From a virus: a stretch of DNA of 64,000 nt. This document shows positions 2,543 through 37,100 of this stretch, piece after piece. Position 1 is the first letter of the stretch. Each line of letters begins with the position of its first letter. A program made the position numbers and the translations under genes. The notes under the pieces were generated by a model. The model was not told where the DNA came from and made no database searches. It worked only from the letters and a program-made list of their open reading frames with translations. The stretch lies in IMG/VR virus record IMGVR_UViG_3300025782_000011, positions 2,214-66,213 of that record. One strand, given 5' to 3'.

Positions 2543-3178
2543 ATGCCGGTTTATATCGACACACGAGGCAATTCCGTCTTATCAGTCGGCGTTTGCGATC
2601 GATGCAGTCGAAAATTTCCTTACGTAGACCTCATGCCAGACCCCAATTTTCCTGGCATGAGAGTTTGCAAGGATGACTTAGATAATTTTGACCCATGGCG
2701 TTTACCCGCCATACAAACAGAAAATATAGCGTTACGTTTTCCACGTCCTGATGTTAATATTGCACTCCCAGCGAGTCAAGTGTGGACAGAAAATGATAAT
2801 GCAATGTTTTTGGAAGGTATTCCACCATATTCTGGTGCTCAAGGTGATTTAGCAACTGGATCAAGTGCCGTATCAGGTAACTTACAACATCCTCCAGTGC
2901 CACAACCACCCGCAGTACCTGGTAATCCACCAATTGTACTTGGTGTATTGCCAAATAGTGGATCACATTTAGGAAATACAGCAGTTGTATTGCAAGGTTT
3001 ATATTTAACAGGCGTAACAGCCATTAATTTTGGTGGTACTAATGTGACAAGTTTCACAATAACCAATCAAAATAACATATCATTTAATACTCCAGCGGGA
3101 ACCGTTGGATCAATTACAATCACCGTAACTGGCCCTTATGGCACAGGACAAGGTGTAAACATATTCAGTTATACTTAA
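2543..3178 (+). CDS. phage protein with N-terminal CxxC domain and C-terminal IPT/TIG-like domain
   Basis: CDRCSRKF...VCKDD. The C-terminal part (PNSGSHLGNTAVVLQG...VTAINFGG...TPAGTVG...VTGPYG) has the IPT/TIG pattern. Confidence 0.6.
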   Translation: MPVYIDTRGNSVLSVGVCDRCSRKFPYVDLMPDPNFPGMRVCKDDLDNFDPWRLPAIQTENIALRFPRPDVNIALPASQVWTENDNAMFLEGIPPYSGAQGDLATGSSAVSGNLQHPPVPQPPAVPGNPPIVLGVLPNSGSHLGNTAVVLQGLYLTGVTAINFGGTNVTSFTITNQNNISFNTPAGTVGSITITVTGPYGTGQGVNIFSYT

Positions 3179-3194
3179 TTTAAGAGAATAGCAC

Positions 3195-6100
3195 ATGGAT
3201 CAACCGATATCGCAACTACCAGTCGCCTCCAGTATTACAGGATCGGAACTCACGGTAGTTGTTCAACAAGGCGTTACAAAACAAGCATCTGTATCACAGA
3301 TTGCTAACGCGGTATCTCCTGGTAAACTTATTACCAATGCAAATATTTTATCAAGTGGTGATTTATTCTTCAATTATAGCGATGGATCAACACAAGATGT
3401 AGGTCGTGTTGCTGCAAATGTAACCGTTGGCACCACAACAACATTAACACCAGGTGCTAATGCTACAGTTACCAATTCTGGTAATTCATCAAACGTTGTT
3501 TTAAATTTTGGTATTCCAACAGGTAACGCAGGCCCATCTGGTAATGCTGCAACTATTTCTGTCGGCACAACATCAACACTTTCACCAGGATCAAATGCCA
3601 CTGTAACAAATAGTGGTAATTCATCCGCAGCAGTATTTAACTTTGGTATTCCTCAAGGCGCGACTGGTAACACAGGCCCACAGGGTAATGCTGCAGCAGT
3701 TTATGTTAACTCAACCACTACATTATCTCCAGGCACACCAGCAAACGTTACCAACTCCGGTAACTCATCCGTAGCTCTCCTTAATTTCTTTGTTCCTGGT
3801 AGCCCAACCGTTAATGTTGGAACAACAACTACATTATCTCCAGGATCTAATGCATCAGTTACCAATAGTGGTAACGCATATGCTACCGTTTTAAATTTCA
3901 GTATTCCACAAGGCGCTACAGGTAATATTGGACCACAAGGTAATGCTGCAACCATTACCGTTGGTACTACAACAACACTTTCACCAGGATCAAATGCCAC
4001 TGTAACAAATAGTGGTAATTCATCCGCAGCAGTATTTAACTTCGGTATTCCTCAAGGTATAATAGGACCACAAGGTAATGCAGCCACTATAACAGTAGGT
4101 ACAACAACAACCGGCGTTGCAAATTCAAATGCATCTGTTACTAATAGTGGTAATTCATCAGCAGCCGTATTAAACTTCACTATTCCTGCAGGCCCATATA
4201 CCAATGTAACAGTTGGGAATACAACTACATTATCATATGGTTCAAATGCAACCGTAAATAATAGTGGTAATTCAACGACAGCAGTGTTTAATTTTGGTAT
4301 TCCGCAAGGTGCTCCAGGTACAGGTTTAGGATATTCAGGCACATGGAATGCATCAACAAATACACCAACACTTACATCAAGCGTAGGTACTCAAGGTAAC
4401 TACTATGTTGTATCTGTAGCAGGTACAACAAACTTAAATGGTGTTAATTTATGGTCAGTGGGTGACTGGGCATTATTTAATGGAACTGTTTGGGAAAAAT
4501 TATTAGGATCTCCTTCAGAAGCATTTAATACTATTACTGTAACAGGCCTCACAGGTTATATGTATGCAAACAATACATCAGCAGTTACCGCATCAACTAC
4601 TATTCCTACAACAGCATTAAGTGGCACTATCACCAATGCTCAATTAGCAAACAGTTCTATTACAGTAAATGGTACATCTATCAGTTTAGGTGGTAGTGGT
4701 ACCATTACAGCAAACACGACTAGTACATTAACCATTGGTACAGGACTCAGTGGCACAAGTTTCAATGGCTCATCTCCAGTTACAATTGCTTTAGCTAATA
4801 CTGCAGTTACGGCCGGATCATACACAAATGCAAACTTAACGGTTGATGCACAAGGTCGAATCACTGCTGCATCTAATGGATCTGCAGGTGGTGTAACATC
4901 ATTTCAAACAAGTTTAAGTGGATTATCACCAAGTACTTCAACCACTGGTGCTATTACTTTATCAGGTACTTTGGGTGTATCAAGTGGAGGAACAGGAGTT
5001 ACAACATCAAGTGGCGCTAACTCTGTCGTATTGAGAGATGCAAATGGAAACATTACCACAAACTGTTTATTTGAAGGATATGTTAACCAAGCTGCTTCAG
5101 GAACAACGATTGTATTAACTGCAAGCACAGTACAAAATTATGCTATTACTGGATCAGGTGGTCAAACTATTAAATTACCTGATGCAACCACATTACCTAA
5201 TGGCGCAACATTTACATTTAATAACAATCAATCATCAGGCACGATTGTTATTCAAAATAATTCATCTACAACAATTGCAACTATTCAATCAGGGTCTTAT
5301 ATTACTCTAGTTTTATTAAGCAATTCAAATGCAGCAGGTTCATGGGATTATCATAATTCACCACCATCTAACGCAAGCTGGTCTACAAACACACTATCAT
5401 GGGCTGGCAGTTACACAAACGGCACATGGAATGGCAATGTGATTGGATTAAATTATGGTGGCACTGGCGCTGCATTGACAGCCACAGCGGGAGGCATTGC
5501 ATACTCCAATGCGTCAGCTATTACATTATTAGCAGCAGGCACAAGTGGTCAGGTACTCACATCAGGAGGTACTGGTGCACCAGTCTGGGTAAACGCTAAC
5601 ACCGTTGGTGGCGTTACATCATTTAGTGCAGGATCAACTGGATTAACTCCAAACACAGCAACCACAGGCGCAATTACTTTAGGTGGAACACTTGGTACAG
5701 GCTACGGCGGTACTGGACTTACAACATTTACTGCAGCAAATAATGCAATCTATTCAACATCATCATCTGCACTCACTGCTGGTACATTACCAGTTGCAGC
5801 GGGTGGTACTGGATTAACATCATTAACTGCTAACTACATACCTTATGGTAATGGTACATCAGCACTTAGTTCAAGTGCTAATTTAACATACAATGGTACA
5901 ACATTTAGTTTAGGTGGTACGGGTACAAGTGCAAGATTTACTGGAGATTTTAGTAATGCTACAATTAGTACTAGACTTGCATTTGTAACAAACACAGTAA
6001 ATAGTGCAACAGGTATTTATGCATTACCTAACGGCACAGTATCAGGACAACAAGCATCGTGGCAAGCTGCAAATGCTGCTGATCCTACCAATGCATCTAA

Positions 6101-7310: not shown

Positions 7311-10300
7311 ATGTCATTACTATCACGATTAGCGGTAGAAGCATCTAGAGCTTATGGATTCTTATCGTCTAACAAAAATAATGTATCTGCAAACTTTTTA
7401 GTTGTAGCTGGCGGTGGCGGTGGCGGTTCAGGCTATGATGCTGGCGGTGGTGGTGCTGGTGGGTATCAAACTTCATCTACAACATTATCCACACTTGTTA
7501 CATATACAGTTACAGTTGGTAGTGGTGGCGCAGCAGTATCAAATACAACAGGTGCAAATGGTTCAAATTCAGTTATATCAGGCACAGGATTAACAACAGT
7601 TACTTCCATAGGAGGCGGTGGTGGAGGAGGTTCTACTACAGGATCAACAGGAATTGGCTCTAATGGTGGTTCAGGCGGAGGCGGTGGATTTACAACTAGC
7701 GGAGCAGGCCTTGCAGGTGGAACAGGGACAAGTGGTCAAGGTAACAATGGTGGTCAAGGATTTACTACAGTAAGTGTTAGTGCTGCTGGTGGTGGTGGAG
7801 GTGGTGCTAGTGCTGTAGGAGCAAATGCAACATCTTCAGCTGCAGGTAACGGAGGAGCAGGCTCTTCTTCATCTATTAGTGGCTCATCCGTAACATACGC
7901 TGGTGGTGGTGGCGGTGGCGCTGATACTAGAGGAACAACTGCTGGAACAGGTGGTTCTGGCGGTGGAGGAAATGGTTCAACAGCAACAGGTGTAGCAGGA
8001 ACAACAAATCTTGGCGGTGGTGGCGGTGGTGGTGGCTATAATGGAGCAGCTAATAGTGGTGGTGCAGGCGGTTCAGGCATAGTCATCATATCTTACGCAT
8101 CTGCTACACCTAAATTCGTAGGTGGCACTCTTACTACTTCAGGTGGTAACCAAATTCACACATTCACATCTTCAGGCACATTAAGCCCTCTTACACCTGT
8201 AACAGCTAGTTATTTAGTCGTAGCTGGTGGTGGTGGTGGTGGATTTAATCAGGCTGGCGGTGGAGGTGCTGGTGGTCTTTTAACATCATCTACAACTTTA
8301 TATTCAGGTGCTACTTATGTAGTAACTGTAGGTGCAGGTGGAACAGGCGGAACAAGTGCAGGTGTTTCTGGTTCTGCTGGAGGAAATTCAGTTATATCAG
8401 GCACAGGTCTAACTACGCTTACTTCAACAGGTGGCGGTGGTGGAGGCGCATATAATACAGCTGCTACATCTGGTGGTTCAGGAGGTGGCGGTGGTGGTGG
8501 TAATAGCAACAATACAGGTGGTTCAGGAACTAGCGGTCAAGGATATGCAGGTGCAACATCAACAAATAATCAATCAGGTGGTGGTGGTGGTGCAGGTGGC
8601 GCAGGAGCTATAGGTGTAAGTTTGTCTGGAGGTGCTGGAGGAACAGGAGTAGCATCTTCAATAACTGGAGTATCTGTAAACTATGCAGGTGGAGGTGGTG
8701 GTGGTAATGCACAAAATTCAGGCTCTGGTGGAACTGCTACTTATGGTGGTGGTAACGGAGGAACTAATGCTAATGGAGTTTCAGGCACAACTAATTTAGG
8801 TGGTGGTGGTGGTGGTGGCGGTAATAATGCTTCTGTTGGTTTTGCTGGTGGCTCAGGCGGATCAGGTATTGTTATCATCTCATACGCTGGCTCACAAGTA
8901 TTTAACGGTGGTCTAGTCACATCATCAGGTGGTAATACTATCCACACATTTACAGCTACAGGTGCTTTAACACCACTTACTAATAACCTAAACAATTCTT
9001 TAAGGTTTAGATTAAGTGCATCTGCATATTTAAATAGAACTCCATCTCAAGCATCTAACAGAACTACTTATACTTGGAGTGCATGGGTTAAACGAGGTTC
9101 TTTAGGTAATTATTTTACTTTATTTGGTGCAGGAACAACAGCACCTACTTATGATGTTATTCGTTTTAATTCATCAGATCAATTAGAGTTTTTTACTGCA
9201 GGTGCAGCATCTGTTGATGTAGTTACATCTCAAGTATTTCGTGATCCTTCAGCTTGGTATCATATAGTTGTTGCTGTTGATACTACACAAGCAACTGCAG
9301 CTAATCGTGTTATGTTTTACATTAATGGTAATCAAGTAACTTCATTTGCCGCAGCAACTTATCCAACACAAAATTCTGTAAATTCAATTAATAATACAGT
9401 TCCTCATGCTGTAGGTGCTACTGCTGTTAATTCTACATTTAATACATATTTTGATGGATACATGGCTGACATTAACTTCATTGATGGCCAAGCCTTAGCA
9501 CCATATTACTTCGGTAACAATGACGCTAATCAAGTATGGAAACCAATTAAATACACAGGCACATACGGAACTAACGGTTTCTACTTAACATTTGGTAACA
9601 CAATATCTACCACAACATTAGGCTACGATAGTTCACCTAACGGTAATAATTGGACAACTAACAACATTAGCTTAACAGCAGGCACAACTTATGATGCTAT
9701 GACTGATGTTCCTACGCTAACAAGTGCGACTGTGGGTAATTACTGCACACTTAATCCTTTAGATAAATATTCAACTGTAACTACTTTAGCCGCTAATTTA
9801 CAATCAACAAGTGGAACTGCGTCAACTTGGACTGCTATTGCTGGATCATTTGCTGTGTCTAGTGGCAAATGGTATTGGGAATATACTGTTAATGCAACAG
9901 GAGTAGCAGATTATATGAATGGCATTATTTCCACTTCAGATAATATTTCTAATGCTTTGTTTCCTGGTCAAACATCTACATCTTATGGATATTATAGTGT
10001 TAATGGTCAAAAATATAACAATAACACAGGAACGTCTTATGGTGCAACTTATCAAACTGCTGGTGATATTGTTGGTGTTGCATTAGATTTAGATGGAGGA
10101 ACACTAACATTTTATAAAAATGGCACAAGTCAAGGAACTGCATTTACAGGAATATCAGGAACATTTAAACCAGCGTATTCATCTACTGCAACATCCACAG
10201 TAAATATTATTAACTTTGGACAAAGACCATTTTCTTACACACCTCCTACAGGCTATGTAGCACTAAACACATATAACCTACCTACCCCTACTATATTACA

Positions 10301-11309
10301 GGGTAATAAGTATATGGATGCAACGCTATATACAGGTAATGGCTCTACACAATCTATTACTAATACCGCAGGATTTAAACCTGATTTAGTATGGGTAAAA
10401 TCAAGAAGTGCAGCTACAGATCATAAATTAACTGACTCTGTTAGAGGTGTTACAAAAGCACTTATATCTGATACTACAGGTGCAGAAACAACAGATACCA
10501 ATGGTTTAACAGCATTTAATAGCAATGGTTGGTCATTAGGAACAGACACTAATTATAATAACAATACTGCCACTTATGTAGGCTGGCAATGGCAAGCTGG
10601 ACAAGGTTCAACATCATCTAATACTTCAGGCTCTATTACATCTACTGTATCTGTAAACACAACTGCTGGGTTTAGTGTAGTGACTTATACAGGAACAGGT
10701 GCTAATGCTACAGTAGGACATGGGCTTGGTGTTGCGCCAAGCATGATATTCTTTAAACAAAGAAGTGGTGGAACTGCAAGAGCTTGGCAAGTTTATCATG
10801 TGTCTATGGGCAATGGTGGTGGTATGTATTTAAACCAAACTAATGCTTATACAGCAGACTCTACAGCATTTAATAATACATCTCCTACATCATCTGTATT
10901 TTCTTTAGGTTCTAGTGTATATCCAAATCAAAGTGCTAGTCCTATAGTAGCCTATTGCTGGGCAGCTATTCCAGGCTTCTCCGCTTTTGGAAGTTACACA
11001 GCAAATGCTTCTACTGATGGTCCATTTATATATTGTGGATTTAGACCAAAATATATATTAATTAAAGGAAGTGTTGCTGGTAATAATTGGGTAGTATTAG
11101 ACACTTCTAGAAGTCCTTACAATGTTGCTAATTTATATTTACTTCCTAATTCTACAAATGTAGAAGGTAGTGGAGGTGATTTAATTGATATTGTAAGCAA
11201 TGGATTTAAAATTAGAGATTCTGGTAGTGATGTAAACTATTCATCAGGAGCAACATACATTTACGCAGCATTTGCAGAAAATCCTACAAAAATTTCTAAT
11301 GCAAGGTGA
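7311..11309 (+). CDS. large glycine-rich tail protein with LamG/ConA-like and SPRY-like domains
   Basis: Two VVAGGGGGG glycine-rich modules, TWSAWVKR...WYHIVVAVD (LamG-like), GKWYWE...GVALDLDGGTLTFYKNG (SPRY-like), and C-terminal PDLVWVKSR/GHGLG repeats. Confidence 0.75.
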   Translation: MSLLSRLAVEASRAYGFLSSNKNNVSANFLVVAGGGGGGSGYDAGGGGAGGYQTSSTTLSTLVTYTVTVGSGGAAVSNTTGANGSNSVISGTGLTTVTSIGGGGGGGSTTGSTGIGSNGGSGGGGGFTTSGAGLAGGTGTSGQGNNGGQGFTTVSVSAAGGGGGGASAVGANATSSAAGNGGAGSSSSISGSSVTYAGGGGGGADTRGTTAGTGGSGGGGNGSTATGVAGTTNLGGGGGGGGYNGAANSGGAGGSGIVIISYASATPKFVGGTLTTSGGNQIHTFTSSGTLSPLTPVTASYLVVAGGGGGGFNQAGGGGAGGLLTSSTTLYSGATYVVTVGAGGTGGTSAGVSGSAGGNSVISGTGLTTLTSTGGGGGGAYNTAATSGGSGGGGGGGNSNNTGGSGTSGQGYAGATSTNNQSGGGGGAGGAGAIGVSLSGGAGGTGVASSITGVSVNYAGGGGGGNAQNSGSGGTATYGGGNGGTNANGVSGTTNLGGGGGGGGNNASVGFAGGSGGSGIVIISYAGSQVFNGGLVTSSGGNTIHTFTATGALTPLTNNLNNSLRFRLSASAYLNRTPSQASNRTTYTWSAWVKRGSLGNYFTLFGAGTTAPTYDVIRFNSSDQLEFFTAGAASVDVVTSQVFRDPSAWYHIVVAVDTTQATAANRVMFYINGNQVTSFAAATYPTQNSVNSINNTVPHAVGATAVNSTFNTYFDGYMADINFIDGQALAPYYFGNNDANQVWKPIKYTGTYGTNGFYLTFGNTISTTTLGYDSSPNGNNWTTNNISLTAGTTYDAMTDVPTLTSATVGNYCTLNPLDKYSTVTTLAANLQSTSGTASTWTAIAGSFAVSSGKWYWEYTVNATGVADYMNGIISTSDNISNALFPGQTSTSYGYYSVNGQKYNNNTGTSYGATYQTAGDIVGVALDLDGGTLTFYKNGTSQGTAFTGISGTFKPAYSSTATSTVNIINFGQRPFSYTPPTGYVALNTYNLPTPTILQGNKYMDATLYTGNGSTQSITNTAGFKPDLVWVKSRSAATDHKLTDSVRGVTKALISDTTGAETTDTNGLTAFNSNGWSLGTDTNYNNNTATYVGWQWQAGQGSTSSNTSGSITSTVSVNTTAGFSVVTYTGTGANATVGHGLGVAPSMIFFKQRSGGTARAWQVYHVSMGNGGGMYLNQTNAYTADSTAFNNTSPTSSVFSLGSSVYPNQSASPIVAYCWAAIPGFSAFGSYTANASTDGPFIYCGFRPKYILIKGSVAGNNWVVLDTSRSPYNVANLYLLPNSTNVEGSGGDLIDIVSNGFKIRDSGSDVNYSSGATYIYAAFAENPTKISNAR

Positions 11310-24401: not shown

Positions 24402-24857
24402 ATGATATCATACCAAAAAGAAACCGTTTCATCATTTTTAAAAGACGCATATCCTTTATTTGATGAACACCATAAAGAAGTTTCTGAACGCCAAGATGTA
24501 ATTAACCATAATCTAAATGTTGATCAATTTAGACTTATGGAAAATAAAAATATGTTAGAAATTCTAACTATTCGAGATGATGGTAAATTAATTGGATATC
24601 ATACTTGGATTTTATTTAAAGCATTACACTTTAAATCAGTTTTAACAGCATCATCAGATTTATTATTTATTTTGCCAGAGTATCGTAAAGGATTATTTGG
24701 CTACAAGTTCCTTAAATGGAGCTTATCTGTAATTAAAAAACGTAAACCGCAAAGAGTTTTGATTGGTATTAAGCCAAAAAATGATTTTAGTAAGATACTA
24801 AAAAGACTCGGTGCAAATCATTTTGAAACAACTTATTCGATAGTATTGGAGCAGTAA
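24402..24857 (+). CDS. GNAT-fold acetyltransferase-like protein
   Basis: RDDGKLIGY...DLLFILPEYRKGLFG acetyl-CoA binding pattern. Confidence 0.65.
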   Translation: MISYQKETVSSFLKDAYPLFDEHHKEVSERQDVINHNLNVDQFRLMENKNMLEILTIRDDGKLIGYHTWILFKALHFKSVLTASSDLLFILPEYRKGLFGYKFLKWSLSVIKKRKPQRVLIGIKPKNDFSKILKRLGANHFETTYSIVLEQ

Positions 24858-25960
24858 TGGCTGATAGTTTTATACCAGGTGGCGATTTTGTACCAGGAAG
24901 CGATTTTGTTCCTGGTATAACAGATGTATTGGGTATTGATCCATCTCAAGGTTCAGTAGGTCAAACAGGAACTGCAGATACTACAACAACTCCAACCGAT
25001 ACAACAGGCAGTCCTTATGGTAGTGGTACAACTACTGATACTACTGGTGGTCCTAACATGGGGCAAATTAATACCACAGGTCAAGTAGAACCATCGGGTG
25101 GTGGCTATGATCCATCTCAAGGTTCAGTAGGTCAAACAGGAACTGCAGAAACTACAACAACACCAACTGATACAACAGGTAGCCCTTATGGTAGTGGTAC
25201 AACTACGAATACTACTGGAGGTCCTACAGATATTGGAGCTCCATCTACTGGCACTCCTACAGAACCTGGTGGTGGTGGTTGGACTCCTCCAACAGGAGTA
25301 GATCAAATTAGCGTTACAGCTAGACAACTTGCTAATACTGCTGGAAATTCTGCAGCTCAAAGTTTTCTTAATAGTATGTTAGGGAATACTGCAAACACAA
25401 TCGGACATATTCTTACTGGTGCTACAGGAACAACAGGTAAAGTTGCTAATACAACAGGTGTTGGTGCTCAATCTCAAACACCTAATAATACATCAAGTAA
25501 TCGAATCAATTTAACTCCGGGTTTAACACAAGCAACTTCAATTCCTGCAAGTGAATTAGGTGGCGTATTTAGTGCAATTCCTTCTATCATGGGATCAGCT
25601 CCAGTTAGTTTTGGCGCTTATGCTGAAGGTCATCGCGTTGAAGAAGATCATCAATCTTCAGAAAACCATATCCCACAATTCTACAGTGAAGGTGGTTTAA
25701 AACATAGATACGTTCAGGGAGATGGTGATGGTACTTCTGATAGCGTACCGGCTATGTTGGCTAATGGTGAATTTGTTATTCCTGCGGACGTGGTCTCGTC
25801 TTTAGGTAACGGTAGTAATGATAGTGGTTCAAAAGTATTAGATGAATTCTTGAAAACAATTCGCGAACATAAAGCTAAACATGACGTAAATCAATTACCT
25901 CCGGACAGTAAAGGTCCATTAACTTATTTAGAAATATCAAAAACTAAGGTAGAAAAATAA
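24857..25960 (+). CDS. internal virion (ejection) protein
   Basis: C-terminal GDGDGTSDSVPAMLANGEFVIPADVVS domain, internal 57-aa duplication. Confidence 0.6.
   Translation: MADSFIPGGDFVPGSDFVPGITDVLGIDPSQGSVGQTGTADTTTTPTDTTGSPYGSGTTTDTTGGPNMGQINTTGQVEPSGGGYDPSQGSVGQTGTAETTTTPTDTTGSPYGSGTTTNTTGGPTDIGAPSTGTPTEPGGGGWTPPTGVDQISVTARQLANTAGNSAAQSFLNSMLGNTANTIGHILTGATGTTGKVANTTGVGAQSQTPNNTSSNRINLTPGLTQATSIPASELGGVFSAIPSIMGSAPVSFGAYAEGHRVEEDHQSSENHIPQFYSEGGLKHRYVQGDGDGTSDSVPAMLANGEFVIPADVVSSLGNGSNDSGSKVLDEFLKTIREHKAKHDVNQLPPDSKGPLTYLEISKTKVEK
24938..25226 (+). repeat. intragenic direct repeat with 171-bp offset
   Basis: GATCCATCTCAAGGTTCAGTAGGTCAAACAGGAACTGCAGA at 24938 and 25109. Confidence 0.85.
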
Positions 25961-27042
25961 TGTCTGGAATTAATAGCTTAATCTCTGATACCACCGCACA
26001 GACCACCACGATGCCAGCTTGGTTTGACCAAGCTCAACAAAATAATGTTAATCAAGCTCTTTCTGCTGCAGGTCAAGTACCTTCATTCCAAAATACAGCG
26101 GGTGGTGTTGCTGTTAGTAATTTAACAGGAGCATCTAATCCATTTACACAAGCCCAAAATACTTTAGGTTCAATTGCTCAAACTGCAGCAACAAGTCCAT
26201 GGATTACTAATCCGACAACAGGTCAAGTTACTCCTAATACTGCAACTCCATTAGGCGGTTTATTTCAAGCTAATGAACAACAACTTCAACAACTTATTCC
26301 TCAAACAGTAGCCCCATCTGATGCAACATCTATTTCAGGTGGTCAATTTGGTAGCCTTCGTAATCAAACAGCTGCTGACACAGCAATTGCTAATGCTCAA
26401 GCTCAAATGTTGCCTGGCGAATATCAAGCTTTTTTAGCTAATCAACAAACTGGTATTAATGCAGCTACAGGATTAAGTGGTGCTGGTGCTCAAGGAACTG
26501 CAGCAGAAACTACTTTAGGTCAAGCACAACAAAATGCTCCATTAGCAGGAGTTAAAAACTTAGCTCAAGTTTTAGGTTCTACACAAGTTCCTACAACAAC
26601 AACTCAATCAGCCTCATTATCACCTTTATCACAACTTCAATCATTAGGTAATTATCTTGGCATGACTCCAGGTCAAATGGTAGGTGCGGCAGGTAATGCT
26701 GTTACTGGCATTTTGGGATCTTTATTTGGAAATACTTCACCATCAACTGGAGCAGTATCCTCTATTCCAAATACTTCAACTGAAGGTCAACCAGGATATG
26801 GTTGGCAATACTTCTCTGATGGTACATCTATTTCACCAACGGGTCAATATTACCAAGGTGGCACACTTATTTATGATCCAAGTAATCCATCAGGTGCAGC
26901 TTCTACTAATCCGGATATGAGTCAAATTAATACAACAGGTCAAACAGATTCATCTGGAGGCGAATATGATCCAAATGCTCTCCCAACAACGGACTCAACA
27001 CAAACGTTTGATCCAAATGCACCAGGAATAATAGTTAATTAG
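25960..27042 (+). CDS. internal virion (ejection) protein
   Basis: Gln/Ala/Gly-rich, GGQFGSLR motif, position after the nozzle gene. Confidence 0.55.
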   Translation: MSGINSLISDTTAQTTTMPAWFDQAQQNNVNQALSAAGQVPSFQNTAGGVAVSNLTGASNPFTQAQNTLGSIAQTAATSPWITNPTTGQVTPNTATPLGGLFQANEQQLQQLIPQTVAPSDATSISGGQFGSLRNQTAADTAIANAQAQMLPGEYQAFLANQQTGINAATGLSGAGAQGTAAETTLGQAQQNAPLAGVKNLAQVLGSTQVPTTTTQSASLSPLSQLQSLGNYLGMTPGQMVGAAGNAVTGILGSLFGNTSPSTGAVSSIPNTSTEGQPGYGWQYFSDGTSISPTGQYYQGGTLIYDPSNPSGAASTNPDMSQINTTGQTDSSGGEYDPNALPTTDSTQTFDPNAPGIIVN

Positions 27043-27053
27043 GAAAATATATT

Positions 27054-28817
27054 ATGGGATTAGATTTTTTATCAGGACTATCGGGTATCAGTACTTTAAT
27101 GGGTTTAGAAAACTTAGCAAAGAAACCTACTGAATCTGCTACTCCAACTTCTGATTCACCTACATCGTCGTCCTCAACTCCATCTGGAGGCCTTACTACA
27201 ATCACAGGCCCTGGCGGTAAAAAAATTGTAGTAGATCAATCATCATCAGATCAAATTTATAAAAATTTACAAGATCAGTACAATTTACGTAATAATGAAT
27301 TTACTGATTGGCAAAATAGAATGCAAGCAGCACGTGCTGCAGCTATTCCTAATTTACATGGTGAATCCTCTAATGCCCAACTTGCATTAAGACAACAACA
27401 AGAAACAGAACGTAAAGATCGTCTTGCTATGCTTGTTGATATGATGGCCATGAAAGGTTCTCAAGCGCAACAAACTCAATTAAGAACTGCATTAGAAAAA
27501 TCAATGCTTCCTGATACAAGTACAGGTGCTGGCGCTACTGGTGCTACAGGCGCTGGTGCAGGAACTTCACAAACTGGATATGTTATTCCAGGGTATATTC
27601 AAAAACAAATTTTAGATTTAGCTAATGCTGGTGACGTTGATGCTGCTATTAAGTTGCGTGACGAATATCAAAAACCAGCTGAAAAAGCTAGAGCTGAAAA
27701 TATTTATAGCATCGAACGTCAAAAACCTGTTCTTCTTGGTATTGGTGGACATAATAGAATGATGACTTTAGAAGAAGCTCAACCATATTTAAGAGGTGAG
27801 CGTGGTACTGAAGTTACAATTACTGATCCTCAAACAGGTCAACAATTAGATGCAAATGGTAAACCAAAAGTTTCACCATCACGTAAACCAGCGGCTCCAA
27901 AATATGAACCTGATCCATCATTAATTCCTAAAGCAAGATCATCATATAAAGATGGTGGTGCTGTTCAAAATTTTGCAGATGGTAACAGTGTGTTTTCAAA
28001 TACAGATCCTATCTTAGTAGCAGATGCTTCAACTCCGATTGTTCCTGTAACTGCAAAACGTATTCCTAGACCAGAAAATTATCCAGTGGCCCCAGAAGAA
28101 GTACAAAAACTCAATGACATTAAAAATGCTATTGAGACAACTGGTGGTAATGAACGTGAAAAAGAAGATGCTTTAGATATTAAAGATCTAGAAGCTCGCG
28201 AAAAACAAGCTATCAATACGCTCACTGACGTAACTAGATACAAAAATTACTTAGATACAAAACCTCATATATTTGGCCCTGTTAAAGGAAATCCAATTTT
28301 AAATAAAATTGTACCTGTATTAGAAGGTGTTCCAGGTATTAAAAATCCAGACAATGAAAAAAGCCATGGATTAGATTTAAGAGCAATGCTTACAAATGCA
28401 GTTATTCCTTCTGAAGATGTAGGTGATAGACTTAATGCTGATGCATTAGCTACTCAACTTGGTATTGCTTATGCTAAATTAAACTTCCCCGGTCGTATGA
28501 CTAATATGGAATTAGGTCAACAACAACGTGCTAAAGGTTTAAGTGTTGATGATCCGACACAATCAAATCAACATGCAATTAATCTTATTGAACATGAAGC
28601 AAATAAAACATTAGGTTTAGCTGATGCATGGAAACGATTTAAGATCCAAGAAGAAAAAATGAATCCTTCACATAGACCTACATGGTCAAATTTCCAATTA
28701 ACTGATGCTTATGACCATTGGAAAAAATTAGAACCGCCAAAAGAAAATATAGGAATATTAAAAAATAATTCATTTGTTACTGATAAAAATCACGTTGTAA
28801 CAAAGGTAGGAGACTAA
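27054..28817 (+). CDS. internal virion protein
   Basis: 587 aa, helical, YKDGG and FADG motifs. Confidence 0.5.
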   Translation: MGLDFLSGLSGISTLMGLENLAKKPTESATPTSDSPTSSSSTPSGGLTTITGPGGKKIVVDQSSSDQIYKNLQDQYNLRNNEFTDWQNRMQAARAAAIPNLHGESSNAQLALRQQQETERKDRLAMLVDMMAMKGSQAQQTQLRTALEKSMLPDTSTGAGATGATGAGAGTSQTGYVIPGYIQKQILDLANAGDVDAAIKLRDEYQKPAEKARAENIYSIERQKPVLLGIGGHNRMMTLEEAQPYLRGERGTEVTITDPQTGQQLDANGKPKVSPSRKPAAPKYEPDPSLIPKARSSYKDGGAVQNFADGNSVFSNTDPILVADASTPIVPVTAKRIPRPENYPVAPEEVQKLNDIKNAIETTGGNEREKEDALDIKDLEAREKQAINTLTDVTRYKNYLDTKPHIFGPVKGNPILNKIVPVLEGVPGIKNPDNEKSHGLDLRAMLTNAVIPSEDVGDRLNADALATQLGIAYAKLNFPGRMTNMELGQQQRAKGLSVDDPTQSNQHAINLIEHEANKTLGLADAWKRFKIQEEKMNPSHRPTWSNFQLTDAYDHWKKLEPPKENIGILKNNSFVTDKNHVVTKVGD

Positions 28818-28818
28818 T

Positions 28819-29718
28819 ATGCCGTTATATAACATTAATGGAAAAGAAGTTAATCTTCCTGCCCATTTTGAAAATAAAACACCTCAAGATCAAAAAGCGT
28901 ATATTGATAATTTAGTATCACAACATACAGATCAAAGTGGTAATTTTAATCCACCAGCTAATTTAGATGTTAAACCAGGACATCACTTACAAGGTGCTGA
29001 ACTAGGTATATTAACTCAAGCTGTTCAAGATATTGGTGGTGGGGTATCTCATAAAGCTTTAAATATTATTAATAACTGGGCATCAAAGCAAGGTAATAAT
29101 GTTCCTGGTGAAGCTGCTATAAAAGATCAACTTGGTGGTACTCCAAATTGGGGAGCATCTAGAGCAGATATCCATAATTTGGAACAACAAATGAAAATAA
29201 TTGCAGATCAACATAAAGCTATGCCTCCGGAAGAAGCAGCTAAATGGGAAATCTCTATTGAAAAACCAGAATTAGTACCTAAAGGTTCTAATGCTAAAAT
29301 TATCGCTGATAGAGCTGCAGCTAAAGCTGCTGAAGAATCAGCTAAAGCAGAAGCACGACGAAAAGCTTCTCAATCAGTAATGGGTAAAATAGCAGAAAGT
29401 GTGCCTCTTGCAGCTAAAGCAGCACCATATCTTGGTCGAGCATTATCGGGCGCGCAACTTCTTGAAGGTGCCGAAAGATTATCGCAACCTGGTTTAAGAA
29501 ATAAAATATCTGGTGGTATGAATGTTCTTGGTGGCGCATTACCAATTGCTGCTGAATTTTTCCCACCATTAGAAGGTGCAGCAATTCCTTTAAGTATGGC
29601 ATTAGGTGCGGGTTCTGAATTTGTAGCTCCAAGTCCTGATGAAAGAGCACCAAATGTATCCGTAGGTAAACCAGTTATCTCTCAAAAAGCTGGCGGTTTA
29701 ACTCATTTAAAAAAGTAG
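28819..29718 (+). CDS. internal virion protein, N-terminal part of a predicted frameshift fusion
   Basis: 299 aa, ends on a slippery site (TTA AAA AAG TAG). Confidence 0.55.
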   Translation: MPLYNINGKEVNLPAHFENKTPQDQKAYIDNLVSQHTDQSGNFNPPANLDVKPGHHLQGAELGILTQAVQDIGGGVSHKALNIINNWASKQGNNVPGEAAIKDQLGGTPNWGASRADIHNLEQQMKIIADQHKAMPPEEAAKWEISIEKPELVPKGSNAKIIADRAAAKAAEESAKAEARRKASQSVMGKIAESVPLAAKAAPYLGRALSGAQLLEGAERLSQPGLRNKISGGMNVLGGALPIAAEFFPPLEGAAIPLSMALGAGSEFVAPSPDERAPNVSVGKPVISQKAGGLTHLKK

Positions 29719-29741
29719 TCCCCGCCTTTGAAGGGGGCGGA
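29706..29741 (+). other. -1 programmed ribosomal frameshift signal
   Basis: A AAA AAG at 29709-29715 (overlapping T TTA AAA) followed by the GC-rich hairpin CCGCCTTT-GAA-GGGGGCGG. The -1 frame is open into ORF 29838. Confidence 0.75.
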
Positions 29742-31559
29742 GATGTAAATACAGGAGCTACTACTTTTGTAGATCCGTCATCTCCACTATCTGTTGCGTT
29801 TGATGAATGGCTTAAAGGTGATGCTCCTGCAGCTCGTATGATGCGAGGAGAATCCATAAGTGGTCAAGATATTGCTAATCAATTTGCTACATCCGCACAA
29901 CAAGGTATTAAAAACCCTTTAAATTTTCTTGGTATTATTAAAGACCCTGGCGGTATGATGGTTGGTGGTGAAAGAGAATTGACCAATCAGTTGCGTGGTA
30001 TTAAAAAAAGTCAGGAAACTTACAATAGACCTCCGTATCAAAATGCATTAGGTCATACTATTTTAGAAAATCCTCAAGCTGATCCTCATGCAATAGCAAT
30101 TAATGGTTGGATTGATACAAAACTTAAAAAATATTTACGTAATCAGTTAGGTTCAAAAGATGATCCTATCTTAAAAGCAATTGATGAGGGTGTTCCATAT
30201 AATCACGGAGAAGTTTCTCGAGATGCAAAAGATTACGCAGAACGAGAAAGAATGAAAGCTGGCAAACCATTAGAAGGTATTGCAAAAACTGAAGCAGGTA
30301 AAGCTTGGGAAGATAAAGTTGACTCTCAATTTAATATAGTTAAATCCCAAGAAATTAAAGATATTTTAAATAAAAATATGCCTGATTATAATCCAGGTTA
30401 TAAGGATGCTGCTGATAAATACAAAATGTCAATGTTGCGTATGACTCACGATCTTCCTATTAACAATAGTCAAGATTTAGAAGCATTATCATTAATTAAC
30501 CATATACCCGATGAAACAGTTCATAGCGTATACATGGATTTACCAAACAGATTAGGTCTCGACCATGTATCTGATGTTCTTTATGAAGACTTACAAAATG
30601 ATCGATTAAGACCTGAACAACTTAATCAGATGTCTATAGAAAAAGCTATTAGACGTACTGCAGAATATGATGCAGAAAAAGCCAAAATAGCTGAAAAAGC
30701 AGAAGCTGATAGAATTAAAGGATTACCTGTTCATAAAGATTATAATAATGGGTTTAAATGGATAGAATTAAAACATCCGACCAATGATGCTATTACCAAA
30801 GAGGCTTTAGAATCAGAAAGCAATCAAATGGGGCATTGTGTTGGCACCAATGATACATATTATAATGCGGTTATAAATGGGGATTCAAAAATTCTTTCAT
30901 TACGAGATGCTAATAATAAACCTCACGTAACTTTAGAACTTAATCGTAAACCTTTAACTTATTCAGATGTTGCTAATGTTATCGGTCAAAATCAAACATC
31001 AGCATTACTTGATCACGTACATGCTTCCGGTGGGACTACTAAAGATTTTGCTAATGTTGCAAGACAAATGTATCCTGAATTAGAAACTTACGATATTAAT
31101 CAAGTTAAGGGTAAAGAGAATACAAGACCTGTAGATAAATATCAACATTATATATCTGATTTTATAAAAAATCCAACAGTACCTGGCGGATATGGTGACG
31201 TACATGAATTATATAATACGGATTTAATTAGCGCTAATAAAGTAAAATCAAATGGAATATATGATTACGATCATGGAAATAAATTTTCAGATTTAGTGTT
31301 TAGTGATCCTTATTTTAAAAAAGCTGTAAAATTAGCTTATCCTGAACATGAAAAAACTTGGAAAAGCACAAACACAGTTCCAGAGATTAATGCTTGGGCT
31401 AAACAAGATTCAAGTAATAAAGAAGATATGATTAATAATATAGTATCTGAAATGCAAAATAAAAATATGAAATATTTTACAGTTAATGATTTAATTGATC
31501 ATATTAAAGAAAACCGTTTACCTAAACCATTATCGAAAGATTATAATTATGGCAACTAA
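29715..31559 (+). CDS. PcfJ-like domain protein, probably translated as a -1 frameshift extension
   Basis: ESNQMGHCVG...ILSLRD...PHVTLEL...INQVKGKEN is the PcfJ-like pattern. The frame is open for 41 codons upstream of ATG 29838 with no start codon. Confidence 0.6.
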   Translation, partial: VVPAFEGGGDVNTGATTFVDPSSPLSVAFDEWLKGDAPAARMMRGESISGQDIANQFATSAQQGIKNPLNFLGIIKDPGGMMVGGERELTNQLRGIKKSQETYNRPPYQNALGHTILENPQADPHAIAINGWIDTKLKKYLRNQLGSKDDPILKAIDEGVPYNHGEVSRDAKDYAERERMKAGKPLEGIAKTEAGKAWEDKVDSQFNIVKSQEIKDILNKNMPDYNPGYKDAADKYKMSMLRMTHDLPINNSQDLEALSLINHIPDETVHSVYMDLPNRLGLDHVSDVLYEDLQNDRLRPEQLNQMSIEKAIRRTAEYDAEKAKIAEKAEADRIKGLPVHKDYNNGFKWIELKHPTNDAITKEALESESNQMGHCVGTNDTYYNAVINGDSKILSLRDANNKPHVTLELNRKPLTYSDVANVIGQNQTSALLDHVHASGGTTKDFANVARQMYPELETYDINQVKGKENTRPVDKYQHYISDFIKNPTVPGGYGDVHELYNTDLISANKVKSNGIYDYDHGNKFSDLVFSDPYFKKAVKLAYPEHEKTWKSTNTVPEINAWAKQDSSNKEDMINNIVSEMQNKNMKYFTVNDLIDHIKENRLPKPLSKDYNYGN

Positions 31560-31950
31560 ACCTGGATTATATGCAAACATTCACGCAAAACAAAAACGCA
31601 TAGCCGCTGGTAGCGGTGAGCGTATGCGTAAACCTGGATCTAAAGGCGCACCTACTGCGCAAGCTTTTAAAGAATCAGCAAAGACTGCCAAGCCTATGAA
31701 AAAAGGTGGACCATCTTTAGCCGTAGGTCGTGGTGAAAAATTACCAGTATCTAAAGGTGCAGGACTCACTGCTAAAGGTCGTGCAAAATATAACAGAGAA
31801 ACAGGTAGTCATTTAAAAGCACCACAACCAGAGGGTGGCGCTCGTAAAAGATCTTTCTGTGCAAGAATGTCTGGCATGCCAGGACCCATGAAAGATGAGA
31901 ACGGCAAGCCTACAAGAAAAGCAGCATCGTTAAGACGCTGGAAGTGCTAA
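31549..31950 (+). CDS. basic phage protein, DUF6321-like C-terminus
   Basis: MATKPGLYANIHAK... joined through MKKGG to GLTAKGRAKYN...RSFCARMSG...RRWKC. Confidence 0.6.
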   Translation: MATKPGLYANIHAKQKRIAAGSGERMRKPGSKGAPTAQAFKESAKTAKPMKKGGPSLAVGRGEKLPVSKGAGLTAKGRAKYNRETGSHLKAPQPEGGARKRSFCARMSGMPGPMKDENGKPTRKAASLRRWKC

Positions 31951-31954
31951 CTTT

Positions 31955-32818
31955 ATGGATTTACCATCACTAGCTGAAATTCAAGCATATTTGCAAAATG
32001 CTAAAAACCAGTATATGCAAAGTGATGTTCCTGCTGCGCGCATGATGCGTGGTGAGCCAGCTAACTATGGTGAGGCATTAGGTAACGCCCTTCAAGCAAG
32101 TAGTCAAGACCCAATGGCTTTTGTTGGATCAATTTCAGATGCAACTCCAATGATTCGTAGTAGTCTTTCCGAATTATATAAATCTGTATTAGAACGTAGG
32201 GGAGAAGATGCTGCTAAACGCGTACAACAAGCTGCAGATTTAGTTCCGAATTTAGAAAAACAATATAGTAATGAAGCATTACAAGATGCTTTTAATAAAA
32301 CTAATGTTCTTGGAAAACAAAATGCATTTACTGTAATTAATCCAAAAGAATTTTTAGAATATAGTAGACCATTACCCAATGAACCATTTAAATCACCATA
32401 TTGGAATCATTATAGTGAAATGGAAAATAATGATGTATTACCAACAAATCAATATTTAGAACATTTAATAAATGTAGCAAATCAAAAAGGATTTAATGAA
32501 GTTCCTAATTTACAATTAGGATTTAATAAAATGGGTAATTTAAGAATAATGGGACACGAAGGCAGACATAGAACTGCAGCATTAGGTCAACGTGGTGATC
32601 CTAGTACATTAGTAGAAATAAAACCCCAATCAAATTTAGTTAATAAATACGAAAATCAAGAAAATCCTTGGGATTATAATTCAACTGATTTTATTAAACG
32701 TTTATATGCTGGCGAAGGATCTAATCCTAGAGTAATTCCAGAACGAGTTGATTTTCATGAATATGATTTGCCGTTGCCTAATTTATTTGCACACGGCGGT
32801 TTAGTTTATTTGCGGTAA
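31955..32818 (+). CDS. ParB/Srx-like domain protein, putative virion cargo
   Basis: IMGHEGRHRTAAL. N-terminal DVPAARMMRGE is shared with the frameshifted ORF, C-terminal FAHGGLV. Confidence 0.5.
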   Translation: MDLPSLAEIQAYLQNAKNQYMQSDVPAARMMRGEPANYGEALGNALQASSQDPMAFVGSISDATPMIRSSLSELYKSVLERRGEDAAKRVQQAADLVPNLEKQYSNEALQDAFNKTNVLGKQNAFTVINPKEFLEYSRPLPNEPFKSPYWNHYSEMENNDVLPTNQYLEHLINVANQKGFNEVPNLQLGFNKMGNLRIMGHEGRHRTAALGQRGDPSTLVEIKPQSNLVNKYENQENPWDYNSTDFIKRLYAGEGSNPRVIPERVDFHEYDLPLPNLFAHGGLVYLR

Positions 32819-35225: not shown

Positions 35226-37100
35226 CTATATTTCACAAACACCGCTCACGCATGCAAGCATTTGTGCGCCTTCTACATTGTCAGTTATTTCTTGGAACTT
35301 AGTCCAATCAATGACAGGCATTTTTGCTTTTAGTTCTTTATATTCTGCTTCTGTGCACTCTTCATATGGTGCTTGTCTATATGTACCACCATCATATGGT
35401 AAATATGACACACCACTAATCTGATCAAAATGATCCCATGTCCATGCACCTACACTCGGCCAATCTTTTTCTTCAACCGATATTGTAACAGAAGGTTTGT
35501 GTTCACACCACTCTCTTTGATAAGTTAACCATAATTCTAAGTGGTTAATTGGAGTGACATCTGAACGTGTTAATCCATCTGGCGCTTTTTGAGGGAAGCT
35601 GAATACTGTCGTTTGCGTCGGTTTATATACGCAGTCTTCGCTAGGAACGCCTTGTTCCACAAGGAAGGTTGTAAGTGGATCTTTTTTGTCGCCACGTACT
35701 CTTCTGATATAGAATTTAGAATGTCTTGGATGGATTCCTGACGCAGAGTCAACAAGTTGAGAGACTGTTCCACTTGGCTTGACGCAGGTAATTGCTGCAC
35801 TGGTTGGGATGCCAAGTTTTTCTGCCCAGATTTTGTTCGTAGCTCTCGCCACATCTCTAAGTTCGTTAAGAATTCCATTTAGTTTATCTCCTTGGGTGGT
35901 CATTAAAGTATTATCAAATATACCAGTTAGTGATACACCAAGCAAGCGTTCTTCTTCAGTATTCTTTTGCCATACTTTTCTTAAGTACGGGAATTTTGTG
36001 AACGTTGACTGTATAGTACCCAAAATAGTCGCCAAGATAACTTTGCGTTCAAGTGATTTTTTGGTATCGTCGTGGCGTATAACAACTTCCGTGAGGTTAC
36101 AAAATTGATACGGACGAAGAATGATTTCGGAACACGGGTTTGTACCGAATTCGAAATTTGGATCTCGATGTCCGAATTTTGATACCGTTTTCTTAGCAGC
36201 CTCTCGATTGAAAATACCGCGCTCCCCCGAGTGACTGTTGTAGAGTGAGAGCCATTCCTCCATGAACTTACCAACTGTAGGCGTCTCGTTATATACGGCG
36301 GAATTATTCGCAAGCGCGCGATGCGGCGCTGTGTCCCACCAAGGTCCCGCTTTTGCATGTCTAATCCTTTCATCATCTAAGTCTGATAGTGAGATCATAG
36401 CAGATCGACGTACGCCACCTACTACAACTACTTCACCAATCTTACACATAATGTCGTGGCACTCTAATGAATTGAGTTTACGACCTTTGGCATGTTTGAA
36501 TGTTGCTACTACAAAATTAAATAAATCAATTAATGGATCTGGACCAGACGCCCTACCACCAAATGTTTTTAATCGAGCTCCTGCTGGGCGGATTTTTGAC
36601 ATGTCCCATTTTGGGATTTCACCTGCCCATAGATGAGCCAATAATAATCTTAATGCTTTTGCCCAACCTTCTTTTGAATCATGAACGGCGATGGTGTGCT
36701 CGGAATCAAATAAAGTGTCCGGCACTTCGGGCAGTTTGTTAATATTACTTGATTCGACAGAGAAACCAACTCCTGTTCCACATAACAAAATAAACATGGC
36801 CTCATCAAATGACTTAGGATCATCGACTGGAAGGTACGAACAATTATATACACAGGTGTTATCACGATCAGCGCTCTTTCCTGCCGTCATCATAGCACGC
36901 ATGGACGGCATTACTTCATGGTTGTAAATAGCAAATGTTATTTCTTTTCTTAATTCTTCATTGTCTTTAATCGCATCCGTGCGACTAAAAATATAATCTA
37001 CAAATCTTTTGGTTGTTTCTTCCCACGTTTCACGTCTATTCTTTTCATCGATAAAACGTGCGTATCGACTCGCGGCAATGTATTCTCTATATTGATCCAT
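35226..37100 (-). CDS. nrdJ: class II (B12-dependent) ribonucleotide reductase
   Basis: GTNPCSEI, TCVKPSGTVSQL, C-terminal CVSGVCEI, and no beta-subunit gene. Confidence 0.9.
   Translation of the reverse strand: MDQYREYIAASRYARFIDEKNRRETWEETTKRFVDYIFSRTDAIKDNEELRKEITFAIYNHEVMPSMRAMMTAGKSADRDNTCVYNCSYLPVDDPKSFDEAMFILLCGTGVGFSVESSNINKLPEVPDTLFDSEHTIAVHDSKEGWAKALRLLLAHLWAGEIPKWDMSKIRPAGARLKTFGGRASGPDPLIDLFNFVVATFKHAKGRKLNSLECHDIMCKIGEVVVVGGVRRSAMISLSDLDDERIRHAKAGPWWDTAPHRALANNSAVYNETPTVGKFMEEWLSLYNSHSGERGIFNREAAKKTVSKFGHRDPNFEFGTNPCSEIILRPYQFCNLTEVVIRHDDTKKSLERKVILATILGTIQSTFTKFPYLRKVWQKNTEEERLLGVSLTGIFDNTLMTTQGDKLNGILNELRDVARATNKIWAEKLGIPTSAAITCVKPSGTVSQLVDSASGIHPRHSKFYIRRVRGDKKDPLTTFLVEQGVPSEDCVYKPTQTTVFSFPQKAPDGLTRSDVTPINHLELWLTYQREWCEHKPSVTISVEEKDWPSVGAWTWDHFDQISGVSYLPYDGGTYRQAPYEECTEAEYKELKAKMPVIDWTKFQEITDNVEGAQMLACVSGVCEI

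Follow-up and report, generated by a model that had tools for sequence, protein, structure and literature searches.

Described frameshift systems and the locus studied here

The tau/gamma signal of the Escherichia coli dnaX gene combines a slippery heptamer, A_AAA_AAG, with an upstream Shine-Dalgarno (SD)-like element and a downstream stem-loop, and a ribosome that has shifted there soon stops, giving the shorter protein. We describe here a candidate −1 frameshift site with the same heptamer at the 3' end of ORF1, an open reading frame (ORF) among the late genes of an uncultured freshwater tailed phage. The site lies in a stretch of 64,000 nucleotides (nt) of the IMG/VR record IMGVR_UViG_3300025782_000011 (positions 2,214 to 66,213; hereafter the window). 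Comparison with related sequences suggests that a programmed −1 ribosomal frameshift probably yields two products of this late gene, one of 299 amino acids (aa) and one of 913 aa, the longer of which would carry a C-terminal module with a PcfJ-like domain (hereafter the cargo).

Several described systems come close to this arrangement. A_AA.A_AA.G is among the most efficient −1 motifs in E. coli, and V_VV.A_AA.R forms an efficient class, according to the relevant part of Sharma et al. 2014 (PMC4066793). The same part describes the IS3/IS911-type orfA-orfAB pairs, in which an A_AAA_AAG-class heptamer and a downstream structure fuse two overlapping frames (PMC4066793). Counterparts of the lambda G/GT tail-assembly-chaperone frameshift are conserved among tailed phages (Levin 1993 and Xu 2004, cited in PMC5009743), and the passages on this system in PMC5009743 state that neither lambda G nor GT is present in the virion. 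Its passages on capsid extensions made by −1 frameshifting cover T7/T3 gene 10A/10B, Lactobacillus phage A2 and Listeria A118/A500 (PMC5009743). Polyvalent proteins consist of several modules, which are shuffled between relatives; their genes lie among late virion genes, and the proteins are predicted to be packaged and delivered (Iyer et al. 2017, PMC5512222). They are described as single polypeptides in one frame, and the words "frameshift" and "PcfJ" have 0 occurrences in the text of that paper (PMC5512222).

The present locus resembles dnaX in that the identical heptamer is followed by a predicted stem-loop a few nt downstream, and in one related phage contig (L004) an SD-like GGAGGG lies 11 nt upstream. 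It differs in that 614 further codons would follow the slip, the 0-frame stop abuts the heptamer, and the upstream element is weak in the window. With lambda G/GT it shares a late phage gene, a (here predicted) slip near the end of the upstream ORF, a downstream ORF without a start, two products with a common N-terminal part, and a layout kept despite divergence. However, the site, at the end of the late operon, is next to a DNA polymerase gene on the opposite strand, and no tape-measure gene follows. The extension is also large, exchangeable and enzyme-like, whereas in G/GT it is a fixed chaperone domain. Assignment as a tail-assembly-chaperone (G/GT) pair was considered and rejected on position, as the downstream ORF has a PcfJ domain and does not lie between major tail and tape-measure genes.

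As in the capsid extensions, a −1 slip would append a C-terminal domain to a minority of the copies of a structural protein, here a putative one. Those extensions, as far as PMC5009743 describes them in these passages, are short or immunoglobulin-like decorations on a major capsid protein, whereas here a 614-residue PcfJ-like module, which varies between relatives, would be appended to a small non-capsid protein. The late-gene neighbourhood and a distant cargo relative that combines PcfJ with ART-PolyVal (P0077) recall polyvalent proteins, with the difference that the carrier-cargo junction here is a predicted recoding site. In contrast to the IS3/IS911-type pairs, the locus lacks a transposase, inverted repeats and a long overlap between the frames, and the 0-frame stop abuts the heptamer. 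The predicted mechanism is that of the dnaX/IS3 class of bacterial −1 sites, and its use would resemble, by analogy, lambda G/GT and the T7/T3 and A2 capsid extensions. The mechanism is textbook. We found no published case in which it serves to attach exchangeable cargo at a conserved point; the papers returned by searches on frameshifts in internal virion or ejection proteins were, by title, genome reports, a T7 codon-deoptimisation study and a retroviral review, and none appeared to deal with cargo attached by a frameshift.

The slippery site and predicted hairpin at the end of ORF1

The elements of the predicted frameshift, in window coordinates, are as follows.

28819-29718, + strand: ORF1, 299 aa, the 0-frame product, an open reading frame with the tail ...QKAGGLTHLKK and a stop
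29709-29715, + strand: slippery heptamer A_AAA_AAG, in X_XXY_YYZ register in the 0 frame; A_AAA_AAA in the same register in relatives
29716-29718, + strand: 0-frame stop TAG, immediately 3' of the heptamer; same TAG in the related contigs L004 and L018/L019
29718-29744, + strand: predicted stimulatory hairpin, core stem 29722-29740, CCGCCUUU / GGGGGCGG, loop GAA
29715-31559, + strand: −1-frame cargo reading frame, 614 codons plus stop; gene callers begin at ATG 29838 or 29841
29715-29837, + strand: start-less linker/adaptor in the −1 frame, VVPAFEGGGDVNTG followed by ATTFVDPSSPLSVAFDEWLKGDAPAAR(MMRGE)
30588-30950, + strand: PcfJ-like domain (PF14284), scoring 32.4 bits (cut-off 25), E 9.7e-8

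The 3' end of ORF1 reads ...ACT CAT TTA AAA AAG TAG. A preliminary description of this DNA had pointed to the ending CAT TTA AAA AAG TAG with its A AAA AAG and to a GC-rich hairpin a few nt downstream, and both were recovered: the heptamer is present in register at 29709-29715, and the 42 nt starting at 29709 are predicted to fold at −13.1 kcal/mol, the outer stem beginning 3 nt past the heptamer and the core stem 6 nt past it. A second, overlapping heptamer, T_TTA_AAA, starts three bases further upstream, at 29706-29712.

In a crude set of ORFs of at least 100 aa, A_AAA_AAR occurred in frame eight times. Of the eight, only the 29709 site combines an immediate stop with a −1 frame that is open for 614 codons. 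In six of the others the −1 frame is open for 1-8 codons, and in the remaining one for 151, in a small ORF nested within the gene at 35226-37100, where the open frame is that gene's own. By itself, the heptamer is no more than chance expectation. As it is unremarkable alone and the z-score of the hairpin is modest (see below), the case rests on the comparison with relatives.

The hairpin is unique within the window. The frequencies of its codons within their synonymous sets in this phage are 0.084 for CCC, 0.093 for GCC, 0.043 for GGG, 0.225 for GGC and 0.226 for GGA, and their product is ~1.7e-5. The peptide motif [YFM][AE][DEG]GG, which the hairpin region encodes at the junction, has 10 occurrences in the long frames of the loci compared, three at junctions and seven in frame elsewhere. 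For the three junction copies, the folding energy of the 42-nt windows is −10.7 to −13.3 kcal/mol, against −1.1 to −4.4 kcal/mol for six of the in-frame copies; the seventh, in a GC-richer contig, reaches −9.2 kcal/mol. Built of rare codons, and folding more strongly than six of the seven in-frame copies of the motif, the hairpin looks selected at the RNA level.

The site is conserved in relatives that carry different cargo

The closest relative of the cargo, P0005 (76% identity), is encoded by L004, a 41-kb IMG/VR contig. The ORF1 counterpart of this contig shares just 23% identity with ORF1 (E 2e-4) and ends GTT TAT CTA AAA AAA TAG, then TTCCCGCCTTTGAAGGGGGCGGAGATGTAAAT, with the same hairpin. 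The −1 frame of L004 reads KKIVPAFEGGGDVN, followed by a different linker, PcfJ and an extra C-terminal module, and extends over 806 codons. The third phage is represented by L018, a 39-kb viral contig whose sequence is the same as that of the 65-kb metagenome contig L019, perhaps from the same sample. Its ORF1 homologue (50% identity) ends CAC ATA AAA AAA TAG, again with the same hairpin, and its −1 frame continues with KKIVPAFEGGGNV, the adaptor ...FDDWRKGDAPAARIMRGE and then a domain like that of ORF4, a gene downstream of the cargo in the window, with no PcfJ.

In a three-way alignment of these phages, 31 of the 33 positions over 29708-29740 were invariant, and the flanks were strongly diverged. 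Conservation of the slippery site and hairpin in relatives with variable downstream domains was a comparison suggested in the preliminary description, and this is what L004 and L018/L019 display. Pattern scans for further copies of the junction returned only L017 (= L004) and L018 among viral contigs, only L019 among metagenome contigs, and no copy among prokaryote genomes. A scan with the ORF1 alignment added a single contig, L023, which ends inside ORF1, and one with the cargo relative P0006 failed to recover the contig that encodes P0006. As so few copies were found in the pattern scans, the device is rare.

The −1 frame is start-less and has the marks of coding sequence

The −1 frame opens after the TAA at 29667-29669 and closes with the stop at 31557-31559. 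From 29670 to 29837 it contains no ATG, GTG, TTG, CTG or ATH codon, and its first ATG is at 29838, so the earlier observation of an open frame that lacks a start after TAA 29667 was correct. A slip would give a product of 299 + 614 = 913 aa with the junction ...THLKK/VVPAFEGGG. The junction-spanning peptide of the predicted fusion is ...GGLTHLKKVVPAFEGG, and the start-less stretch encodes VVPAFEGGGDVNTGATTFVDPSSPLSVAFDEWLK. This stretch contains both the FEGGG motif and the DAPAARMMRGE that had been remarked upon before, the latter matched by DVPAARMMRGE near the N-terminus of ORF 31955 (ORF4).

We compared the 32-codon adaptor between phages. Between the window and L002, a related locus, there were 25 nucleotide differences, of which 17 fell at third positions, with 16 synonymous versus 4 non-synonymous codon changes; between the window and L018, the codon changes were 9 synonymous versus 5 non-synonymous. 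This substitution pattern indicates that the start-less stretch is coding sequence under purifying selection. The adaptor is also 88% identical to residues 145-176 of P0002, a continuous 834-aa ORF in L002. In L004, the junction is followed by 137 conserved codons without ATG, GTG, TTG or CTG, and this start-less stretch aligns, from the junction on, with residues 353-499 of P0007, a continuous protein of 996 aa (52% identity, E 1e-47). In all seven of the more distant loci examined, the linker-cargo module is enclosed by an open frame of 596-1409 aa. Likewise, many of the 80 cargo relatives found are 1000-1077 aa long, with the module in the C-terminal part of a continuous protein. Given these long continuous frames in relatives, the module usually forms the C-terminal part of a longer protein; in the three phages, only a −1 shift could attach it to anything else.

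In each of the three lineages, the cargo frame is uninterrupted (461-806 codons). The preliminary description had judged the hidden stretch to look translated and had proposed a hidden −1 frameshift giving 299-aa and ~913-aa forms. The synonymous changes and the continuous ORFs of relatives bear out the former, and the conserved site, the variable cargo and the coding selection support the latter.

The PcfJ-like cargo

PcfJ is the sole named domain recognised in the fusion. PF14284 covers residues 293-413 of the 615-aa −1 product, at a score above the cut-off as given above, which agrees with the PcfJ-like domain first reported from the sequence, and relatives also match PF14284. An MGHCVG motif is among the nearly invariant residues of the PcfJ-like region.

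A structural model of the cargo, confident in the PcfJ-like region, had a predicted local distance difference test score (pLDDT) of 80.8, with residues 1-74 below 50 (disordered or flexible). Foldseek of this model against the PDB returned no match at E <= 0.001. In a wide structure search with the folded region around PcfJ (model residues 337-514, window 30720-31253), all 50 of the 50 matches listed were GNAT-type acetyltransferases, at Z of at most 7.9, which is middling by the tool's own scale. The modelled PcfJ-like region may thus resemble the GNAT fold, which we take as a lead only.

PcfJ-like domains had also been said to occur in polyvalent proteins. One relative, P0077 with its ART-PolyVal domain, agrees with this, whereas the name PcfJ appears nowhere in the text of PMC5512222. 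In phage DSL-LC04 (L021, OR003939.1), an 826-aa gene annotated as PcfJ-like, at 3150-5627, stands between the large terminase (terL) and portal genes. The slot between terminase and portal genes often holds packaged MuF-type proteins. The domain combination of P0077 and the gene placement in DSL-LC04 both fit a packaged, host-directed module.

ORF1, the putative carrier

ORF1 consists of a small N-terminal domain, a Lys/Ala-rich helical middle and a Gly/Ala-rich hydrophobic C-terminal part. It had no match in Pfam, PHROG or NCBIfam, none by tblastn against 50,697 phage records, and only unnamed viral clusters with scores below 0.9 in the ESM Atlas. A sub-threshold row for NUFIP2 was judged compositional and rejected. 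The ORF1 family is tiny: among 1.84 billion representative proteins there were four matches, all of at most 296 aa and none an in-frame ORF1-cargo fusion. Since all four relatives are this short, the split is the normal state of the ORF1 gene. The ending GG-x-x-x-[LI]-KK is present in four of the six aligned ORF1 members, and the relatives P0084 and P0086 end without the KK tail.

An AlphaFold model of ORF1, built from a six-row alignment, was of low confidence (pLDDT 49.8). The last 26 residues of ORF1 and the first 74 of the −1 product are predicted to be disordered, and such predicted disorder on both sides of the junction would suit a flexible tether.

Alternative explanations and points against a ribosomal frameshift

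The same 913-aa fusion would arise if RNA polymerase slipped on the A-run and added one A to some mRNAs. Because the products are identical, the evidence from the cargo sequence does not discriminate between the two mechanisms. L004 and L018/L019 have seven consecutive A's, and AAAAAAA may give mRNA indels, according to part of Sharma et al. 2014 (PMC4066793). We nevertheless favour the ribosome and consider polymerase slippage unlikely, because the window has six A's and then G, which weakens the homopolymer and keeps the best ribosomal motif, because the X_XXY_YYZ register is exact in all three phages, and because a conserved rare-codon hairpin lies at the spacing expected of a ribosomal stimulator. 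Efficient transcriptional slippage in bacteria needs runs of about nine, which also counts against the polymerase. A different possibility is that the cargo is translated independently from ATG 29838/29841 (573/572 aa), the upstream −1 stretch being untranslated and conserved otherwise. In favour of this, the protein collection contains a 572-aa call (P0004), ORF4 has the adaptor motif directly behind its own ATG, and a cargo relative (P0006) is called with a Met near the junction position. ATG 29838 is without an SD core at the usual 9-16 nt, but so are 12 of the 29 gene starts examined in this phage. However, a start at 29838 would split the conserved adaptor (...DAPAAR/MMRGE), and the stretch upstream is third-position-biased (16 synonymous, 4 non-synonymous) and aligns to the interior of continuous ORFs. 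In addition, the first ATG in L004 lies 137 conserved codons past the junction. No sigma-70-like promoter or terminator-like site was found at the junction on the + strand, nor, by eye, was the phage's promoter-type motif GGGCG-N17-TGCATTAGTA found after the GGGCG of the hairpin. An independent start is therefore very improbable.

The conserved block could also be a recombination joint or module boundary, with the out-of-frame cargo silent or decaying and no fusion made. The block is near-identical in nucleotides between phages with strongly different flanks, the cargo to its right varies, and a cargo-less variant in run X10 departs from the window exactly after 29709. On the other hand, a silent passenger would decay, and the cargo frames have stayed uninterrupted for 461-806 codons in three lineages and evolve under purifying selection. 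A role as a joint is moreover compatible with frameshifting, and both may coexist; we see little chance that the block is a joint without a fusion. Least credible is a homopolymer sequencing or assembly error, or a recent inactivating mutation, that splits one gene, although homopolymers are error-prone and one added A would fuse the frames. The preliminary description had raised an A-run indel as something to look for. In contigs of three runs that span 29709-29715 (X10, which may be the source sample, and X12 and X13, not flagged so; all assembled contigs), there were 0 other letters and 0 gaps. Two other phages with A7 have the same frame layout and the adjacent TAG, and an in-frame ORF1-cargo fusion was present in none of the four ORF1 relatives found (0/4). 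With no indel in the run, A7 relatives with the same frames and TAG, and no in-frame fusion on record, the split is almost certainly not an assembly artefact.

Several observations weigh against a programmed ribosomal frameshift, or limit the support for it. The hairpin z-scores are modest in the three phages (−2.2 in the window, −1.9 and −1.25), with 5, 7 and 20 of 200 shuffles, respectively, folding as stably. The stem is invariant across phages, so it offers no covariation, and Rfam covariance models gave no family match within 29000-30500 at E <= 1. By eye, an SD-like upstream stimulator is clear in L004 only (GGAGGG, 11 nt upstream of the heptamer) and weak in the window (GGCGGT) and in L018 (GGTGGG). 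The window is without a tRNA gene. P0006 (58% identity to the cargo) is called, as a predicted protein, with its own Met 8 codons past the position of the motif. All copies come from three lineages, plus a fragment (P0085, with 83% identity to ORF1) ending ...HLKK, of a single phage group that has upstream genes in common, so that few events underlie the conservation. The support for a fusion comes from DNA sequence comparison; the only RNA contig (run X18) covers 29517-29694 and ends before the slip site. Finally, in run X10, a 67-nt unitig (depth 22.7) tracks the window over 29676-29709 and then enters the start of the DUF6321 gene that follows the cargo. In this variant strain, ORF1 ends THLYRK and a stop, and the entire cargo cassette is missing. 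As cargo-less ORF1 variants exist, the fusion is dispensable.

A weak negative result concerns the junction itself. The 53-aa junction/adaptor peptide had no match to longer proteins at E <= 0.01, which is weak evidence given the short query and the huge database.

Proposed mechanism and its significance

Under the programmed −1 ribosomal frameshift that we consider probable, most ribosomes would read TTA AAA AAG and stop at the TAG, producing the 299-aa ORF1 protein. The hairpin 6 nt downstream, and perhaps also the adjacent stop, would pause a fraction of the ribosomes, which would shift back one base on A_AAA_AAG into the −1 frame. These shifted ribosomes would translate the start-less flexible linker VVPAFEGGG..., the adaptor ...FDEWLKGDAPAARMMRGE and the 540-residue PcfJ-like module, giving the 913-aa fusion. 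We infer that the slip is ribosomal and that the long form is the minor product. ORF1 would be a virion (ejection-type) protein and would bring the module joined to it into both particle and host, and the xxGG motifs flanking the junction may be processing or docking sites.

A broader proposal, which we put forward tentatively and regard as rather less likely to be right than wrong, is that a lineage of freshwater podovirus-like phages shares a conserved recoding "socket" consisting of the heptamer, the stop, the hairpin and the FEGGG linker. Start-less modules (PcfJ/GNAT-like or ORF4-like, with or without a YPNPYGLR module) would be swapped into it by recombination at the 33-nt block, and a few copies of the virion protein would carry an effector into the particle and the host, with the xxGG motifs as processing or docking sites for release of the cargo. 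Cargo-less strains of the same population would reflect the emptying and refilling of the socket.

In practical terms, gene callers start the cargo at an internal Met and thereby lose 41 conserved codons, or 137 in L004. The site offers a compact, conserved candidate for a bacterial frameshift cassette, of about 40 nt. If the frameshift is real, the use of −1 frameshifting by phages would extend beyond chaperone and capsid ratios to substoichiometric, exchangeable and probably host-directed modules on a small late protein, which would be a simple route for low-copy effectors into the virion. The PcfJ family, which is uncharacterised, gains a possible context as a delivered phage module and a lead to its fold (GNAT-like).

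Genome setting and neighbouring genes

The virus record is 66,213 bp long and was rated complete by CheckV, and the window is nearly all of it (GC content 38.8%). The stretch is present in contigs from many freshwater metagenome runs. Judged by similarity of the portal, this phage is closest, among cultured phages, to Caulobacter phage RW-like, Roseobacter CRP-901-like and Pelagibacter HTVC027P-like phages.

The late operon runs in the order terL, portal, a head-protein-like gene, tail-fibre-like genes, two PHROG "virion structural proteins" and then a homologue of "phage stabilization protein", a name that is the annotation carried by relatives of that gene. ORF1 stands at the end of the operon, downstream of these virion structural genes and the homologue. 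In one uncultured relative, the matching operon closes with a transglycosylase gene, and such genes are often found at the end of ejection-protein modules. From gene position only, it is plausible that ORF1 is in the virion as an ejection-type protein. A full tape-measure gene was not identified in the window; there were weak local matches only, in ORF 24857.

Downstream of the −1 frame are the DUF6321 gene, ORF4 and then, on the opposite strand, the DNA polymerase gene. The first two are placed as follows.

31549-31950, + strand: DUF6321 gene, encoding a small basic protein; outside the fusion, right-hand boundary of the cargo cassette
31955-32818, + strand: ORF4, 287 aa, own ATG; N-terminal copy of the adaptor motif (SDVPAARMMRGE); homologue of the domain that is frameshift-attached in L018/L019

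The DUF6321 protein (window 31549-31950) reads MATKPGLYANIHAK... At the DNA level, its gene shares 71-76% identity with genes found in marine T7-like cyanophages, pelagiphages and roseophages, and in PHROG profiles the DUF6321 module is the C-terminus of far larger phage proteins.

ORF4 is 32-34% identical to the L018/L019 cargo. It carries a conserved GHEGRHR motif and ends FAHGGLVYLR and a stop, resembling ORF1-type tails. Neither ORF4 nor the L019 cargo had a Pfam match at E <= 0.05 or an NCBIfam match, and against PDB sequences both returned chance-level rows only.

A motif of the form [YFMK]-x-[DEG]-G-G is found repeatedly where modules meet and also 5-20 residues ahead of C-termini (YAEGG, MADGG, FADGG, KADGG and FAHGG). 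This recurrence covers the late proteins of window 24857-32818 and the loci L002, L004, L005, L011, L018 and L025-L028, and the motif may be a processing or docking site. In L004, the GGAGGG at 5567-5572, which has dnaX-like spacing, codes for the GG of an ADGG motif. Elsewhere in the window, positions 7311-11309 encode a 1332-aa protein in which a glycine-rich domain is combined with SPRY and DUF7483; its PHROG matches to virion structural and tail fibre proteins are strong.

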